A DNA stretch of 64,000 nucleotides from Nitrospinaceae bacterium (GTDB lineage: Bacteria > Nitrospinota > Nitrospinia > Nitrospinales > Nitrospinaceae). The notes under the pieces were generated by a model. It saw only the letters and a program-made list of their open reading frames with translations, was not told the DNA's origin and made no database searches. Position 1 is the stretch's first letter. Every line of letters begins with the position of its first letter. Positions 10,077 to 17,147 of the stretch are shown here, in pieces. Where the stretch lies: contig OZ245011.1 in NCBI GenBank assembly GCA_965223665.1, forward strand, positions 416,001 through 480,000, written 5' to 3'. Position numbers and translations under genes: made by a program.

Positions 10077-10928
10077 TTATTCTAAAATGGTATTATCAAG
10101 TATGGCATCTTTAAGCAGTGCTTTTGCAATATTAGCATCTACTAAATAAGCGTCCTTAAGATTAGTTCCATTTAAATTGGTTCCATGTAGATTGGCCTCT
10201 AATAAAAATGAATTTGCAAGGTTTGCATTTTCCAGATTGGCGTAAGTGAGGTCGGCCCCTTCCAGGTTGGATTCTTCCATATCCACTCCTTTACAAAATG
10301 AATCCTTAAATTCAACTCCGATTAAATTGGCGTAGGACAACCGGACTGCTCTCAACGTGCAAGAATTAAAGTCAGAGTATTTTAGTATGGAGGAACGAAG
10401 GTCAACATCCGACAATTTGGAAAAGGAGAAATCTGAACCGCGGATATTGGCCCCATTCATGCGGGTGGAGAAAATTTCTGTAGATTTCGCAAAGCAATAC
10501 ATAAGATTTGAAAAAGAAAAGTCGCAATTTTGAATTTTTGAGGAAGTAATATTACTGTGGTCTAAACGTGCGGCGCGAAATTCACACCCTCGGAATTGAG
10601 CAGATGCAAAATTTGCATTTTCAATTTTGGCATTTTTAAAATTACAATTTACAAGGGTTGCATTCTGAAAATTGGATTCGCTTAAATTAGCACCACTAAA
10701 ATTAACATTTTTTACCCGGGCATTTTGAAACTTTACTTTGGTTAGGTTTGCTTGAGAAAAATTGAGATCAATTAAATCGGAACCATCAAATATTGCTCCA
10801 GACAGTGTTCCATAAATAAATGAAACTCCATTGAGACTAATTCCTTTTAAGTCATAAGAGCTTAGATTGGTTCCATCCTGGCATTCATTATTTAAAATGA
10901 GTGATAAAACTTCTTCGACGTTTGACAT
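10077..10928 (-). CDS. Pentapeptide-repeat protein
   Basis: Nearly the whole chain is A(D/N)LxG-type pentapeptide repeats. The start overlaps the motA stop. Confidence 0.92.
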   Translation of the reverse strand: MSNVEEVLSLILNNECQDGTNLSSYDLKGISLNGVSFIYGTLSGAIFDGSDLIDLNFSQANLTKVKFQNARVKNVNFSGANLSESNFQNATLVNCNFKNAKIENANFASAQFRGCEFRAARLDHSNITSSKIQNCDFSFSNLMYCFAKSTEIFSTRMNGANIRGSDFSFSKLSDVDLRSSILKYSDFNSCTLRAVRLSYANLIGVEFKDSFCKGVDMEESNLEGADLTYANLENANLANSFLLEANLHGTNLNGTNLKDAYLVDANIAKALLKDAILDNTILE

Positions 10929-11756: not shown

Positions 11757-13835
11757 CTAAATACTGATTAGTTTATTAGTATCTAAAGTCCTGGCTATTA
11801 GAGATTTATGTATATAACTGGGAACCCAGGCAAGGCTCTCTAAATCTAATCGGCTTCCGGGAATAAAAACCTTAAAAAATTCCGGATGATCCTCGCTGAA
11901 CGATAAAATTTGAGGTTGGAGTTCTGATAAACAACGGGAAAGACACATTAATCCAGAAAAAGTTTTACAAAAAAGTTCTCCCCATGAAGTCAAGTATATG
12001 GCTATGACACTACGCACTCTTTCAAGTCTCTTTTGGACAAACTGGGTATATTCCTCTAAAGTTCTACATTCCTTTATATTTCCAATTGTGACTTCTTTAG
12101 GGACGGGATTTCCGAAATCAATGATTAAATATAATTGCTTTACATAAGAATCATTCAGGAGCTCTTTATTGGAAATTTCTGCGACATTGGTTAAAGATAA
12201 AAATCCGGAAAGATCTTCGAGTAGTTTTCGTAGATCATTATCCTTAATTGAATGATCTTCCGATCGAAGTAACAAAAAGGTTTCCTCAGAATAAAGTCGA
12301 TTAAAGCAAGTAAACGCTATTAGAAATTGGAGTGTGGATGCTTTTTTAATGATTTTTGCTTTCGGAATTTGCTCAATAAAATCTAATGTTTTCCCGCGTA
12401 TAAGAAACCACTCACCCGGGTCCCGGGGTTGTGTTTTATGGTGAAGAAAGGTCAATTCCTTTTCACTAGTTTTACCGTCGACCAAGGCAAATAAGTTTTC
12501 GACTTTATTAACTGTTTTCCGATAGAAACTGAATAATTTTCTGCCGAGTAAATGCGTGTCTTTCTCAGTAATTAAACTTTCTCCCGGCGCTAATTTTTGA
12601 TTGGCTTCAGAAATATTTTTATATGAATTCATTAAAATTTTATTGACACGATTTCCCAACGCTACCTTTTCCATCATTTGCCAATTAAAATAATCATTTA
12701 AATAATCAGCTTTGGCCCGAGGCCAATTCCATGAATTTATTAAGTCAATTAATATGACTTTTTTGGGTTGTGAACTTCCATATTTTAATTCGTCAACTGT
12801 AAGTTTTTTTCCTACTTTTAAATAAAATGCGGTTCGTAATACTTCCAATTCGTCACTAGTTTTGTTGTTTTTAAAGAAATTTTCTACTCTTTCAAATAAA
12901 TTAATATAAGGATCGATTTGATCAAATGGAATGCCGCTATAAACTTTACTTTTAATTTCGTGGCAAAGTAAATTACTGGTTGTAGTATTAAACATATATT
13001 CTTCTAATAAAGCCATTTTGATGAGGGTCTTGAAGGGAGCCTTAAACGATTTAATTAATGCCCAAATGGAACCTCCGAAAAATTCACCTTGGGATATATC
13101 ATCTACATTTCCAATATCTAGAAAATCATTACTATTTAAAAGAGTCTGGTGTGTGTTAACCATTTGGTAAAGCTGCTCATACTGTTTGTCATCGGTTTTT
13201 AAAGGGACGACCCACCAAAAGGGGATTTTCCCAGCAGTGATGACGGCGGTTCTATACATTTCTTCTTTTAGCAATTTCGCTTGTGCCGATCCGGTACTTT
13301 CAGAGTCGCTTTCTCCAAAAATATTTTCCTTCACCTCATTAATATCATTACTAAAAAAGTGTATTTCCAATCCATAGGTTTTCCATGCCCATTCTTCAAT
13401 TATTTTTAATTTAAGATTAAAAAGGTCTAGATTTTCAGGAGACACACTATATTTGTTTATAAAAACTGTAAAATCTAAATCAGATTTTACGTTTTGAGCA
13501 ATGGAACCGGCACTCCCCATTAATAAAATACATTCAATAAAAGGATTCAGGTTTTCATTGGGCTGTGAATGAATATCAGGGAAGAGACTTTCTTGAGCAA
13601 AACGGCATTCATAACTTAATTTGAACCCTTGAATTCCACAGGGGACTTGATCAGTTATGAATCCGGGCAGACCTTTTTGATTTATATGTAATAATCGGGG
13701 AATTAAAGTGAAAACCTTCCGGTCTTCAGGGTTGAGGTTGCTAAAGATTTCATTTATTCGGTGCTGATTGTATCGCAGGAAAATTTGCCTATTATGGAAA
13801 AGTTCATTTGAAATGCTCTGTCCATTTGTTGTCAT
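11757..13835 (-). CDS. cyaA: Class I adenylate cyclase
   Basis: Nucleotidyltransferase motif MGSAGSIAQNVKSDLD; EIHFFS; LLKEEMYRTAVITAGKIPFWW; APFKTLIKMALLEEY; DPY; RTAFYLK. All match class I cyclase signatures. Confidence 0.85.
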   Translation of the reverse strand: MTTNGQSISNELFHNRQIFLRYNQHRINEIFSNLNPEDRKVFTLIPRLLHINQKGLPGFITDQVPCGIQGFKLSYECRFAQESLFPDIHSQPNENLNPFIECILLMGSAGSIAQNVKSDLDFTVFINKYSVSPENLDLFNLKLKIIEEWAWKTYGLEIHFFSNDINEVKENIFGESDSESTGSAQAKLLKEEMYRTAVITAGKIPFWWVVPLKTDDKQYEQLYQMVNTHQTLLNSNDFLDIGNVDDISQGEFFGGSIWALIKSFKAPFKTLIKMALLEEYMFNTTTSNLLCHEIKSKVYSGIPFDQIDPYINLFERVENFFKNNKTSDELEVLRTAFYLKVGKKLTVDELKYGSSQPKKVILIDLINSWNWPRAKADYLNDYFNWQMMEKVALGNRVNKILMNSYKNISEANQKLAPGESLITEKDTHLLGRKLFSFYRKTVNKVENLFALVDGKTSEKELTFLHHKTQPRDPGEWFLIRGKTLDFIEQIPKAKIIKKASTLQFLIAFTCFNRLYSEETFLLLRSEDHSIKDNDLRKLLEDLSGFLSLTNVAEISNKELLNDSYVKQLYLIIDFGNPVPKEVTIGNIKECRTLEEYTQFVQKRLERVRSVIAIYLTSWGELFCKTFSGLMCLSRCLSELQPQILSFSEDHPEFFKVFIPGSRLDLESLAWVPSYIHKSLIARTLDTNKLISI

Positions 13836-13942
13836 AAAAGAAAATTGTGTTTAGCTATGTATTTTGGTTATTAATTAATTATAAAACTATATTTTGAATA
13901 AAATTCATTCCTGGAGCGATTATCGGATTTATTTCTTCTAAC

Positions 13943-15475
13943 TTAGGGATTTAAAAGAACTTTGAAATTTTTCCCAGGCTGGTTTAGGGAGATTTTTTTA
14001 GTAGCAATTTCATCATCTAGTACATCCTTATCCTTTAAAATTTTGATTTCTACCCTTCGATTTAGAGCTCGGTTTTTATCGTTTGAATTGGGTTTTTGCG
14101 GCCTATATTTTCCAAAGCCTTTTACAACTATTCTATTTGGAGGAAAATTTAAGGATTCAGTTATAAATCTTGCAACTCTTGAGGCACGGGCTGTAGATAA
14201 TTCCCAGTTTGAGGGGAACTTTTCATTATGAATGGGAACATCATCAGTATGACCTTCTACATATATTTGTTTTACACCTTCTTTTAAATAATCATTCAAG
14301 GCTTGCTTTAAAAAGTCTCTTGCTTTGGGAAGCAGATCCGAATCTCCAGGAGAAAATAAATTATTACTTTGTAATCGAACAGAAAGAGTTTTAACATCGC
14401 TACGGATCAGGCTTTCGGGATCTACATTATCTTGAACTAATTCCTTAACCCTATTGAGCATAGTCACTTCTTGTTGGCTTAAATGTATATTGTCGTCATC
14501 CCAACGAAATTCTTTTTCTTGAAATGACGAGAATGCTTCTGCAAATCTATTTTGATCCACTTTAGAAATTGTAAATAGTAAAACAAAAATTACTAAAATT
14601 AATGTGATCATGTCACTATAAGTAACCAAAAAACTTTCAAGCCCTGAGGAAAACTCCGTTGAACCTTTAGCCCTACTGTCAATTTGAATATTGTTTTCAA
14701 AACGATCGATGTCTTTCTTTTCCTGTTCTTCAATGGCTTTTCTTTCTATATCTGAGATATATTCTTGCTGCTGTTCTAATTTTTCATTTAATTCATTGTT
14801 TTCATCAATTAGTTCACTAAGTTGATTTTTTAAATCATAACCGTATTCTGAAGATAAGAGACCTTTTTCCATGGATTGGGCTGATTCTTTGTAAAATTTC
14901 TCATAGTGTTCAATTAATTTTTCTTTTTCTTTTAATCGCTCTTGTAAATCCTCATTGGTTAAGGTAGGGCGTTTTTTTAGCTCGGTTTTTAATCTAATTA
15001 TTTGTTGATTTAAATCATCAATTGAGTTTATTTTTTCACGAAATCGGCGTAATTCTCTAAGTAGGTAAGATTTTTCCCGGTTACTTTTGTCCAAGGCTTT
15101 TTGTTCCTTAACAAGTCTTTTCCTTATGGCCTTTTCTTTTATGGTTAGCTCATCCAGTTTTTGTTTCCATTCATTTTTTAGATCCGGTACATTGACTCCA
15201 AAATCAGGCTTTCGAGTTTCTTTGTTTTCTTGGGAAGAACTTTGTTTAACTGTTATATGCCGTGATATCCTAGCAACCGAAGCCATTTGCTTGGCTTCTT
15301 GTATTTCCTTATCCTTCTGCTTTAACAGCAGATGCAGTTCGCGAATTTTATCTTTGTTGAGCTGAGTAACCTGAGAAACTTTGCGGTGCAATCTTGAGGC
15401 TTCTCTTTCCTGTTTTTTAAGCTCACTGCTTTTTATTTTTAACTGTTCTTTTACTGTTTGGAGAGAATGATTCAT
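13943..15475 (-). CDS. motB: MotB-family stator B subunit with long N-terminal coiled coil
   Basis: TM motif FLVTYSDMITLILVIFVLLF with the conserved Asp at ~aa 288. OmpA-like domain VEGHTDDVPI..FPSNWELSTARA..NRALNRRVEI. Residues ~1-260 are K/E/Q/L heptad-rich. Confidence 0.85.
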   Translation of the reverse strand: MNHSLQTVKEQLKIKSSELKKQEREASRLHRKVSQVTQLNKDKIRELHLLLKQKDKEIQEAKQMASVARISRHITVKQSSSQENKETRKPDFGVNVPDLKNEWKQKLDELTIKEKAIRKRLVKEQKALDKSNREKSYLLRELRRFREKINSIDDLNQQIIRLKTELKKRPTLTNEDLQERLKEKEKLIEHYEKFYKESAQSMEKGLLSSEYGYDLKNQLSELIDENNELNEKLEQQQEYISDIERKAIEEQEKKDIDRFENNIQIDSRAKGSTEFSSGLESFLVTYSDMITLILVIFVLLFTISKVDQNRFAEAFSSFQEKEFRWDDDNIHLSQQEVTMLNRVKELVQDNVDPESLIRSDVKTLSVRLQSNNLFSPGDSDLLPKARDFLKQALNDYLKEGVKQIYVEGHTDDVPIHNEKFPSNWELSTARASRVARFITESLNFPPNRIVVKGFGKYRPQKPNSNDKNRALNRRVEIKILKDKDVLDDEIATKKISLNQPGKNFKVLLNP

Positions 15476-15680
15476 AGTATTGTCTATTTCTAGTAGTATC
15501 TTATCGGAATTTAAGCGAAAATAAGTAATAACAAAGTTGGTCTCTTTGCTGAGCCCTTTGAATAGTTTTCCACGCTTTATTTAATAAACCACAGGCTTTC
15601 CTTACCCAAATCTCCCTGGATCTATTAGGGAATTGGTGAATTTTCAATCATTTTGCACACGATTCATTTTCAACTTCCTA

Positions 15681-17147
15681 ATGGAAAAAAAATCTAATTT
15701 ATTAAAATCAAAACTATTTTGGGTAGGAATTTTATATTTTGCCGAGGGATTTCCCTTAGGAGTTTTTTATGATGTATTTCCAGTCCATTTTAGAAAACAA
15801 GGGGTCGATCTTTGGCAAATAGGATTTATGAGTCTCCTGGGATTGGCTTGGACGTTGAAATTTCTTTGGGCTCCTGCAGTGGATTATTATCGCCAGCACA
15901 GAAAATGGATTTTCTTAATGGATTCATTGATGGCTTTTATCATGATTGTATTTGCCATTTATGTGGATTTTGGACCTTGGGTTTGGTTTGCCATTGGTTT
16001 GTTTACTATTTTTTCAGCGACCAGTGATATTGCGATTGATGGGTACACGATAGAAATGTTGGAAAAAAATGAGCTAGGGATAGCAAATGGGATTAGAAAC
16101 GGAATGTATCGTGTGGGAATGTTGGCATCGGGATTTATTTTAATTTTAAGTGACTGGTTATCCTGGAGTGCAACTTATGCTGCTGGAGGTTTGATTCTTG
16201 GATTATGCGCAATTGTGGTTTTAATGGCTCCTAAAGAAAAAATCTTAAACTCAAAATCAAACAGGTCTCTCATTTCAGAATTTTCACTTCTAATTAAACA
16301 TCCACTTGCCACTACAGGTGTATATTTGTTTTTGCTGGGTTGCGCACGATTAATTGATATGAAAATTCACTTTTCTAAGGATCAAAATTACATTTGGCCA
16401 TCCCTACTGCTGTCTGTAGTAATCGTGTATTTAATCAGTTTTGTTTTTGCTAATAATTCAAAGTCTTCAAATAAAACATTACGGGATGAACTAAATGAAG
16501 GACCTATGTTTGGTGCTCTTTTTGAGTTGTTGCAGAGACCTCTAATTATTCCAATAATAATCTTTATATTGATTTATAAATTAGCAGATACCTCCATGGG
16601 CTTTATGGTAAAGCCGTTTTGGGTGGATAAGGGATTTACTTCAACCGAAATTGGTCTGGTATCAGTTAATATAGGCTTGGGATTATCAATTGCTGGTGGC
16701 TTAGTGGGGGGATGGTTTACTGACCGTTTTGGAATTTTTAAAGGAATTTGGGTTTTAGGGTTATTACAAGCATTATCCAATCTGGGTTATGCCTGGGTAG
16801 CCTGGATTATTCCGGATCCCGTCGAGGGGATTCCCATGGCTTTAAATTATAAAATTTGGATGTATGGGGCCAGTGTGGTTGAGTCATTTACTGGGGGTTT
16901 AGGTTCCGCAGCTTTTCTAGCATTTCTTATGGCCATTGTAAATAAGAAACGAACAGCTTCTGAGTATGCACTGCTGTCTTCAATTTTTGCTTTAAGCCGA
17001 TCTGTAGCCGGTTGGGCAGGAGGTTTTGGAGCAGAGGCAATGGGTTATTCTTCTTACTTCACTTTGACGTTTTTTTTAGCTTTTCCTGCTTATTTTCTTC
17101 TTCCCTGGGTTAGAAAAATGCTTGATTACACTAAAGATTGGAAATAA
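15681..17147 (+). CDS. ampG: AmpG-like MFS muropeptide permease
   Basis: LYFAEGFPLG, WTLKFLWAPAVD, SATSDIAIDGY, YKLAD, TASEYALLSS. ATG at 15681 preferred over the upstream TTG. Confidence 0.8.
   Translation: MEKKSNLLKSKLFWVGILYFAEGFPLGVFYDVFPVHFRKQGVDLWQIGFMSLLGLAWTLKFLWAPAVDYYRQHRKWIFLMDSLMAFIMIVFAIYVDFGPWVWFAIGLFTIFSATSDIAIDGYTIEMLEKNELGIANGIRNGMYRVGMLASGFILILSDWLSWSATYAAGGLILGLCAIVVLMAPKEKILNSKSNRSLISEFSLLIKHPLATTGVYLFLLGCARLIDMKIHFSKDQNYIWPSLLLSVVIVYLISFVFANNSKSSNKTLRDELNEGPMFGALFELLQRPLIIPIIIFILIYKLADTSMGFMVKPFWVDKGFTSTEIGLVSVNIGLGLSIAGGLVGGWFTDRFGIFKGIWVLGLLQALSNLGYAWVAWIIPDPVEGIPMALNYKIWMYGASVVESFTGGLGSAAFLAFLMAIVNKKRTASEYALLSSIFALSRSVAGWAGGFGAEAMGYSSYFTLTFFLAFPAYFLLPWVRKMLDYTKDWK

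Follow-up and report, generated by a model that had tools for sequence, protein, structure and literature searches.

A MotB-type protein with a conserved N-terminal tail of about 280 residues in a putative motor–cyclase cassette of Nitrospinaceae

The locus and its MotB-type gene

This work concerns a window of 64,000 nucleotides of DNA from a Nitrospinaceae bacterium (assembly GCA_965223665.1, contig OZ245011.1, positions 416,001–480,000 of the forward strand) and, within it, a cassette of four genes read from the reverse strand. The first gene, motB_A, encodes a MotB-type protein (MotB_A, type A) in which an unusually long N-terminal tail precedes the transmembrane (TM) helix; it is followed by genes for a predicted class I adenylate cyclase, a MotA/PomA-like A subunit (MotA_A) and a pentapeptide-repeat protein. 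The last three genes are spaced by one nucleotide or overlap by one nucleotide. The coordinates of all features are collected in Table 1.

The ATG at 15475 is the first start codon downstream of the preceding stop in the motB_A reading frame. A Pfam scan of the whole protein placed MotB_plug at residues 279–320 (E = 2.7e-13) and OmpA at residues 373–473, and matched no family to residues 1–278. Positions 15–56 of the 58-position MotB_plug profile are aligned, which means that the plug segment after the TM helix is present. The TM helix carries the TYSDMITL motif with the channel aspartate D288, and an alignment of 48 family members shows no variation at this residue or at the peptidoglycan-binding residues. 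In a Foldseek comparison, the periplasmic domain matched MotS (9ljl, E = 3e-11) and also PomB (3wpw) and H. pylori MotB. The top NCBIfam matches of MotB_A were MotS, a MotB-family model, MotD and MotB, every one under its cut-off.

MotB_A shares with MotB, PomB and MotS a single TM helix with the channel aspartate, a plug, an OmpA-like peptidoglycan anchor and a cognate MotA in the operon. It differs from them at the N-terminus, where the tens of cytoplasmic residues expected of a MotB are replaced by 278 residues before the TM helix, compared with about 26 in the ordinary MotB of the same genome, and in the gene order, which is motB, cyaA, motA and not motA, motB. On its domain content and operon context, MotB_A is confirmed as a genuine MotB-type stator B subunit at the level of sequence; its predicted topology, with the N-terminus inside, follows from homology to MotB. 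A first-pass annotation of this DNA had described a MotB with a tail of about 280 residues ahead of the TM aspartate motif, at positions 14630–15475. Residues 1–278 and D288 as delimited here bear this description out, and its position agrees with the tail as we place it.

Table 1. Features of the motB_A cassette and of related motor genes in the same genome. Positions are those of the window unless a contig handle (C1) precedes them.
Feature	Position	Strand	Basis or remark
motB_A, long-tail MotB paralogue (type A), 510 residues	13943..15475	(-)	open reading frame (ORF); Pfam MotB_plug/OmpA
Cytoplasmic N-terminal tail, residues 1–278 (topology by homology)	14642..15475	(-)	no Pfam match; homologues; dN/dS
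Helix 1, residues 2–77 (78 in one model), with VKEQLKxK..ELKK	15245..15472	(-)	AlphaFold2 (AF2), per-residue confidence (pLDDT) ~90; period-3.5 z 4.0
Variable linker, residues 78–98, probably disordered	15182..15244	(-)	pLDDT <50
Helix 2, residues 99–168	14972..15181	(-)	AF2; strongest heptad signal, z 10.7
Helix 3, residues 174–203, with EKDxLIxxYEK	14867..14956	(-)	AF2; conserved motif
Helix 4, residues 209–269	14669..14851	(-)	AF2; period-3.5 z 6.5 (family profile)
TM helix, residues 279–305, with D288 (codon 14612–14614)	14561..14641	(-)	AF2 helix; MotB_plug
OmpA-like peptidoglycan-binding domain, residues 373–473	14057..14359	(-)	Pfam OmpA E 9.9e-18; Foldseek
Sigma-28-like promoter TTAC-N16-TCCGATAA	15501..15528	(-)	read from sequence; -10 starts 32 nucleotides before the ATG
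Class I adenylate cyclase (predicted), 692 residues, between motB and motA	11757..13835	(-)	Pfam
MotA/PomA-like A subunit (MotA_A), 275 residues	10928..11755	(-)	Pfam MotA_ExbB 2.3e-27
Pentapeptide-repeat protein, 283 residues, last cassette gene	10077..10928	(-)	Pfam Pentapeptide 3.2e-48
Ordinary MotA (260 residues) and MotB (268 residues; ~26 before the TM motif)	C1:263194-264789		near FlhA and FliA
Type B cassette: MotA (261 residues), long MotB (499 residues; plug 279–319), PilZ-like protein (131 residues), 212-residue protein	C1:619449-622768		

A conserved N-terminal tail of helical, coiled-coil-like character

The tail is hydrophilic in composition (K 14.7%, E 13.7%, L 11.2%, Q 7.9%). 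Residues 1–278 found a match in 34 of 41 related genomes, and the best matches are open frames of about 490–590 residues without stops; fragments and stop-containing matches make up a minority. A profile built from 23 tails matched 76 of 120 Nitrospinota genomes, every one of them in families f1–f4 of one order, and 0 of the 18 genomes of other orders, so that among the genomes searched the tail is restricted to a single order, where it occurs in two paralogous cassettes (types A and B). Against 1.84 billion representative proteins the profile gave 113 matches, the full-length ones being 480–560 residues long with the tail at residues 1–280; MotB_plug was present in 34 of the 40 longest matches scanned, and the remainder were low-scoring coiled-coil proteins.

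It is the profile searches that revealed the wider family: a word-based search with the tail returned three proteins only, a pattern scan of the genome contigs with the whole protein returned one full-length relative and generic MotBs, and an ESM Atlas search with the tail gave no usable match. Family members are labelled in their sources as "OmpA family protein", "chemotaxis protein MotB" or "hypothetical protein". Each named member is found in a record of Nitrospina or Nitrospinota; one is from the cultured Nitrospina gracilis ("OmpA family protein"), and the closest named record belongs to a Nitrospinaceae metagenome-assembled genome (93% identity).

Comparison of the window with a 93%-identical relative counts 83 synonymous and 17 non-synonymous differences in the tail, giving a ratio of non-synonymous to synonymous rates (dN/dS) of 0.03, compared with 0.07 for the rest of MotB_A. 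Within the tail, the ratio is 0.02–0.03 in helices 1 and 2 and 0.44 at residues 64–98, the only relaxed part. The tail is 274–290 residues long in 22 of 23 aligned members. Its best conserved stretch is the extreme N-terminus, which reads x5-8 [VLIF]KEQL[KR]xK..EL[KR]K in both paralogue families; a KEQLK-like motif stands at the start of 25 of the 26 top full-length members (one lacks it) and also opens the reading frames of the loci. This conservation of the extreme N-terminus places the start codon at 15475. The tail domain is therefore real, in frame, conserved in length and under strong purifying selection.

An alternative is that the long reading frame is an artefact of frameshift, mis-assembly or a wrongly called start and that the real MotB begins near the TM helix. 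Three observations speak for such an artefact: no Shine–Dalgarno-like sequence is evident before the ATG at 15475, internal Met codons occur at residues 64 and 202, and gene calls give shorter tails to about 19 of 112 close homologues. They are opposed by the N-terminal motif conserved at the ORF start in both paralogue families, by the low dN/dS of helices 1 and 2 and by the lack of stops in the best matches of relatives. The sigma-28-like -10 element, only about 25–32 nucleotides upstream of the ATG, leaves no space for an upstream start and speaks for the ATG at 15475. Contigs from four public DNA runs are identical to the window over positions 13800–15700 (0 differences), though these runs come from one study and are possibly the source of the assembly; they are the only listed holders of the locus, and no public RNA run covering it is listed. 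An internal start near the TM helix and an assembly or frameshift error, which the first-pass annotation had named as the ways in which its fusion might be false, both fail on this evidence, the same fusion is present in the relatives counted above, and the artefact reading is effectively refuted.

The shorter proteins form a subgroup of their own, with tails of about 175–185 residues, the channel aspartate at 167–186, a total length of 384–396 residues and no helix 1. Several members lie on long contigs, so a gene-calling artefact is probably not their origin. As a side observation, the short-tail proteins P0138–P0212 have their aspartate at about residues 173–186, start with MDxFQNQ...NEQLRKEN and appear to lack both helix 1 and the variable loop. 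Family f3 has an additional tail-bearing MotB with frames of 570–572 residues (G031:C1:174995-176059, G034:C25:654927-655991, G025:C7:12056-13126); its match to the tail profile comes in two segments, and it may be a divergent type B or else a third lineage with a long tail.

AlphaFold2 monomer models built from alignments of 23 and 48 sequences gave the same picture of four helices separated by three breaks. The low-confidence linker between helices 1 and 2 (73/75–97) contains P90, G93 and P97, the shorter breaks lie at residues 169–173 (P170) and 204–208 (G205, with G212 just beyond), and the juxtamembrane stretch 266–280 is also of low confidence. With a predicted template-modelling score (pTM) of 0.29–0.33, the mutual packing of the four helices is not readable from the monomer models.

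Coiled-coil character was judged by an in-house test of hydrophobic periodicity. In the family hydrophobicity profile, the power at period 3.5 corresponds to z = 4.0, 10.7, 4.2 and 6.5 for helices 1–4, respectively, and to z = 21 over residues 2–269; the best period lies at 3.45–3.55 in every tail helix, and shuffling equals the observed power in 0 to 0.6% of 2000 trials. With only the single sequence as input, helix 4 alone misses significance (z = 0.2). The period of the tail is that of a coiled coil and not the 3.6 of a plain amphipathic helix. The uninterrupted heptad sequence described in the first-pass annotation thus gives way to four helices with three breaks marked by Pro and Gly residues, and the length of up to about 35–40 nm that it proposed for the rod stands as the fully stretched maximum, not as the expected length.

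Across the 48 members, the median lengths of helices 1–4 are 65, 68, 28 and 53 residues; the juxtamembrane linker has 20–30 residues, and the loop between helices 1 and 2 (stretch 64–100) varies from 22 to 80. The near-equal length of helices 1 and 2, together with the free length of the loop between them, suggests a hairpin, and with a possible hairpin the length of the stalk may lie anywhere between about 13 nm and 35–40 nm. In helix 1, E10 is invariant and Q11 and L12 occur in at least 90% of the 48 members; in helix 2, L117 and E141 are nearly invariant in the same members and L138 in the 23-member alignment; in helix 3, K184 and E192 do not vary and E183, I188 and Y191 hardly do (23 members, both paralogue families). 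The residues common to both paralogue families are K9, E10, Q11 and L12, then L117, L138 and E141, and finally E183, K184, I188, Y191 and E192. The presence of KEQLK and EKDxLIxxYEK in both paralogues makes these motifs candidate contact sites, either for a shared partner or for packing within the molecule.

A homodimer prediction for the tail (2 x 278 residues) scored 0.13 against a mark of 0.42; the controls were not folded, and the score speaks neither for nor against pairing. Foldseek of the full model matched the periplasmic domain only and gave no fold assignment for the tail. Compared with PDB sequences, the tail profile gave weak matches only, to short helical chains (an N-terminal fragment of PKG I-alpha, E = 4e-4, and T7 gp5.9, E = 7e-3). 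Such coiled-coil-like matches, the periodicity, the conserved helix lengths and a tip motif common to both paralogues, which suggests one shared partner, would all suit a tail that acts as a polar or inter-stator tether, binding unit to unit, to a polar landmark or to the cytoskeleton and keeping a reserve pool near the motor, without any part in gating or any tie to the neighbouring genes. We found no candidate partner for such a tether, and it leaves the strict synteny with a cyclase or PilZ-like gene unexplained; we regard it as distinctly improbable.

Neighbouring genes, paralogous cassettes and links to the flagellum

The gene between motB_A and motA_A is predicted to encode a class I adenylate cyclase. 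Its product matches Adenyl_cycl_N (E = 1e-48) and Adenylate_cycl (E = 4.7e-69), the match covering profile positions 1–407 of 601, and the nucleotidyltransferase motif G[SG]-x9-13-DxD, by which class I membership is judged, is present as GSAGSIAQNVKSDLD at residue 107. The NCBIfam score of 446.6 bits is below the cut-off of 802, and a comparison with PDB sequences gave no match.

The type A order of long MotB, cyclase, MotA and pentapeptide genes, with MFS and FGE-sulfatase flanks, is complete in 13 loci from four families, and a 14th locus ends at a contig edge. MotA_A and MotB_A genes occur together in 13 of 13 complete loci. The pentapeptide gene is found in the same 13 and in four further loci without motor genes: in genera g2 and g5 (loci L083–L086), the MFS/FGE-flanked locus consists of cyclase and pentapeptide genes only (4/4), both motB_A and motA_A being absent. 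The joint loss of these two genes, which lie on either side of the cyclase gene, indicates that MotA_A and MotB_A form one functional unit, and the loci that remain show that the cyclase and pentapeptide pair can presumably work without this unit.

These data bear on a second way of reading the cassette, in which MotA_A and MotB_A would be a sensor of ion flux or of the envelope and not a torque generator, with the tail docking the cyclase, and perhaps the pentapeptide protein, to control cyclic AMP (cAMP). The conserved order with the cyclase inserted between the motor genes, the spacing or overlap by one nucleotide in the window, and the loss of the motor genes while cyclase and pentapeptide genes stay, as expected of a dispensable input module, all fit this view. 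So does the joint absence of tail, FliG and class I cyclase from the same five high-quality genomes of genus g6 in the 41-genome set, and PMC6855561 reports, for P. aeruginosa, a link of cAMP with flagellar load and stators. On the other side, in the type B cassette, which contains no cyclase, the tail is equally long and has the conserved residues E10, L12, K184 and E192 as well; the cyclase and pentapeptide genes persist without a motor in all four loci of g2 and g5; the cyclases have no position that is fixed among the 14 motor-linked sequences yet different in all four motor-less ones, and no region is relaxed; and MotA_A resembles a normal rotor-engaging MotA. Because the tail motifs are common to a cyclase-free cassette and the motor-less cyclases show no specific change, direct docking becomes less likely, and the suggestion of the first-pass annotation that the tail is a docking rod for the cyclase is weakened. 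We hold the signalling-motor reading to be rather unlikely.

The genome contains three genes with MotB_plug, belonging to the ordinary MotAB pair, the type A cassette and the type B cassette. The gene order of type B is kept in seven further loci, and its MotA (MotA_B) is about 70–87% identical across genera. The PilZ-like protein encoded directly 3' of motB in this cassette matches Pfam PilZ with E = 0.016, under the cut-off, and has no significant match in PDB; the 212-residue protein has no Pfam family.

Two side observations concern type B. An element ATGAAAAnATTGCAGAAA or GGAAAnTATTGCAnAAA lies about 80–100 nucleotides upstream of type B motA in 7 of 7 loci of relatives (L076–L082); neither form is recognisable in the genome studied here, and the spacing is unlike that of sigma-54. 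At G011:C1:1957359-1958163, a type B long MotB is split over three frames (102, 231 and 305 residues) and could be a pseudogene or reflect sequencing errors.

Several features tie the type A unit to the flagellum. MotA_A aligns end to end with flagellar MotA in PDB (8ucs/6ysf, E ~8e-44) and with PomA (E = 1.2e-42), and a charged pair R-x7-E is retained in MotA_A and in the ordinary MotA. A passage of PMC7564593 names Arg-90 and Glu-98 as FliG contacts of MotA; on our own mapping, the R-x7-E pair would correspond to Arg-90/Glu-98 of E. coli.

Upstream of motB_A, an element TAAx-N15/16-xCCGATAx, which we take to be the sigma-28 consensus, recurs with CCGATA at -23 to -32 in 9 of 15 type A loci (families f1, f2 and f4), compared with 1 of 15 for the control region upstream of the cyclase gene. 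The same type of element precedes fliD and flgM (identified by Pfam) in this genome, and FliA is present. A further candidate, TAAG-N15-TCCGATAA at window positions 13919–13945 on the reverse strand, across the end of motB_A and the gap that follows it, 84 nucleotides before the cyclase start, was rejected as probably a chance match, being found in 0 of 14 other type A loci, including that of the 93% relative.

The tail also tends to be absent together with FliG: among the 120 genomes, the high-quality ones without FliG also lack the tail (G021, G024, G027, G036, G039, G075 and G048; six of genus g6 and one of g16). In the FliG-less G021, we noticed a 91-residue remnant (309400–309645 on contig C5) that is 63% identical to the C-terminus of ordinary MotB, which suggests a recent loss of the flagellum in that lineage. 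Taken with the retained charged pair and the promoter, the co-distribution with FliG makes driving of the flagellar rotor through a MotA–FliG contact a candidate role for MotA_A/MotB_A.

Elsewhere in this genome, C1:1067618 and C1:1124306 share an identical upstream sequence and identical starts (VVDAERDAGNAEIT...) of ORFs of more than 1000 residues, and the pair looks like a large recent duplication of a gene for a giant repetitive protein.

A proposed accessory stalk on the stator axle

We propose that the MotB_A tail is a built-in cytoplasmic accessory stalk of an auxiliary flagellar 5:2 stator, and we assign this reading a probability of roughly 0.55. MotB_A would be the B subunit of a flagellar-type ion-driven stator, its two chains forming the fixed axle inside a MotA pentamer. 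A juxtamembrane linker of 20–30 residues would thread from the cytoplasmic mouth of the MotA ring, and below the ring the two tails would pair as a segmented, possibly folded-back coiled-coil stalk. Since the tail sits on the peptidoglycan-anchored subunit, it would stay still while MotA turns, and the stalk could serve as a fixed platform beneath the rotating ring, holding the unit steady, setting its position or gating it, and bringing in soluble partners. Through the co-transcribed cyclase and pentapeptide protein the unit would be connected to cAMP signalling, with or without contact between them and the tail. Two reports touch on the same end of MotB: an excerpt of 10.1101/2020.05.12.089201 mentions unmodelled density of the MotB N-terminus inside the MotA ring, and an excerpt of PMC7564593 describes a study of GFP fused to this N-terminus.

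A number of observations weigh against the accessory-stalk proposal. As to the identity of the proteins, the NCBIfam scores of MotB_A fall well below the equivalog cut-offs (MotS 139.8/264, MotD 125.4/283 and MotB 116.2/300 bits), in MotA_B a Ser replaces the Glu of the R-x7-E pair, and the short-tail subgroup indicates that helix 1 is apparently dispensable in some lineages. Pairing of the tails is deduced from the known MotB2 stoichiometry, and the partner of the stalk and its assembly into the flagellar motor are proposals.

The flagellar link has its own counter-evidence. The -35 element of the window promoter (TTAC) is weak, 6 of 15 type A loci, including all three of family f3, gave no match to the sigma-28-like motif, and a loose form of the promoter pattern has 89 matches genome-wide. 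The tail is missing from the FliG-positive genomes G061 and G080 and from all 12 FliG-positive ones among the 18 of other orders, and G006 (97% complete) has the tail and no match to FliG; the co-distribution of tail and FliG rests on a few, phylogenetically clustered losses. The ordinary MotB is 65–75% identical across the order and kept in nearly all flagellated relatives, G022 excepted. Since it is retained, the long-tail units are not required as sole stators, and they read as auxiliary, lineage-specific members of the flagellar regulon and not as the primary stator.

Three known systems are close enough to be compared with the proposed stalk. The first-pass annotation saw in the tail a mirror of Zorya, and this holds as an architectural analogy: like ZorA5B2, the cassette would encode, judging from sequence, a peptidoglycan-anchored unit of the 5:2 type with a long cytoplasmic coiled-coil tail. 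According to a passage of PMC11946911, the Zorya tail is a pentameric bundle of about 70 nm on the rotating ZorA, whereas here the tail is on the B subunit (dimeric and fixed by MotB precedent), shorter and segmented. PADLOC ZorB profiles match the MotB part only (E = 1.6e-22), PADLOC gave no match for the cyclase, MotA_A or the pentapeptide protein, and ZorC and ZorD were not found in the cassette. Identity with Zorya was rejected on the 275-residue MotA_A, which lacks a long tail and aligns end to end with flagellar MotA/PomA, and on the absence of the ZorC/ZorD effectors.

In C. jejuni and B. burgdorferi, separate cytoplasmic proteins at the stator base are described in passages on FlgX (PMC11725899) and FapA (10.64898/2026.10.14.759253). 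Like them, the MotB_A stalk would put a bulk of protein beneath the cytoplasmic side of the MotA ring and could stabilise or gate stators, and the type B cassette has its small PilZ-like gene in addition; FlgX and FapA are soluble MotA-binding proteins, whereas here the mass is fused to MotB, and we found no sequence relationship. The long form of TssL/DotU of the type VI secretion system shares a large cytoplasmic N-terminal domain, one TM helix and an OmpA-like anchor with MotB_A. NCBIfam DotU and TssL models match residues 290–487 of MotB_A only, and this identity was also rejected: the N-terminal domain is coiled-coil-like and not of the DotU fold, and the TM region has the MotB aspartate and plug.

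A full-text literature search (open texts; subscription journals and supplements lay outside it) turned up no account of a MotB that carries a long cytoplasmic coiled-coil domain and, with the Nitrospina literature included, none of a motB-cyaA-motA arrangement. To our knowledge, the B subunit of the solved 5:2 motors adds almost nothing on the cytoplasmic side. What regulates known stator bases is either a separate protein (FlgX, FapA) or, for Zorya, the tail of the rotating A subunit.

In a bolder version, the non-rotating axle extension would be the fixed reference of a sensor of rotation or ion flux, in which a stalk-held cyclase and pentapeptide protein (type A) or PilZ-like protein (type B) are switched by the state of the motor; we consider this unlikely. 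If it were true, a flagellar-type stator would convert load or sodium/proton flux directly into cAMP (or a cyclic-di-GMP response); such a hard-wired mechanosensor has been inferred from genetics in Pseudomonas and is not known to occur as one operon.

For the accessory stalk itself, the conserved 280-residue MotB domain would be, as far as the literature searched goes, the first cytoplasmic domain on the fixed axle of such a motor. Remaining still while MotA turns, it may offer a handle for structural work on how stators are held, gated and read out, and the family may be a natural scaffold where a reference point inside the MotA ring is needed. Together, the linkage to a predicted cyclase and the flagellar-type promoter provide a testable path by which the state of the motor might reach cAMP in marine nitrite oxidisers.

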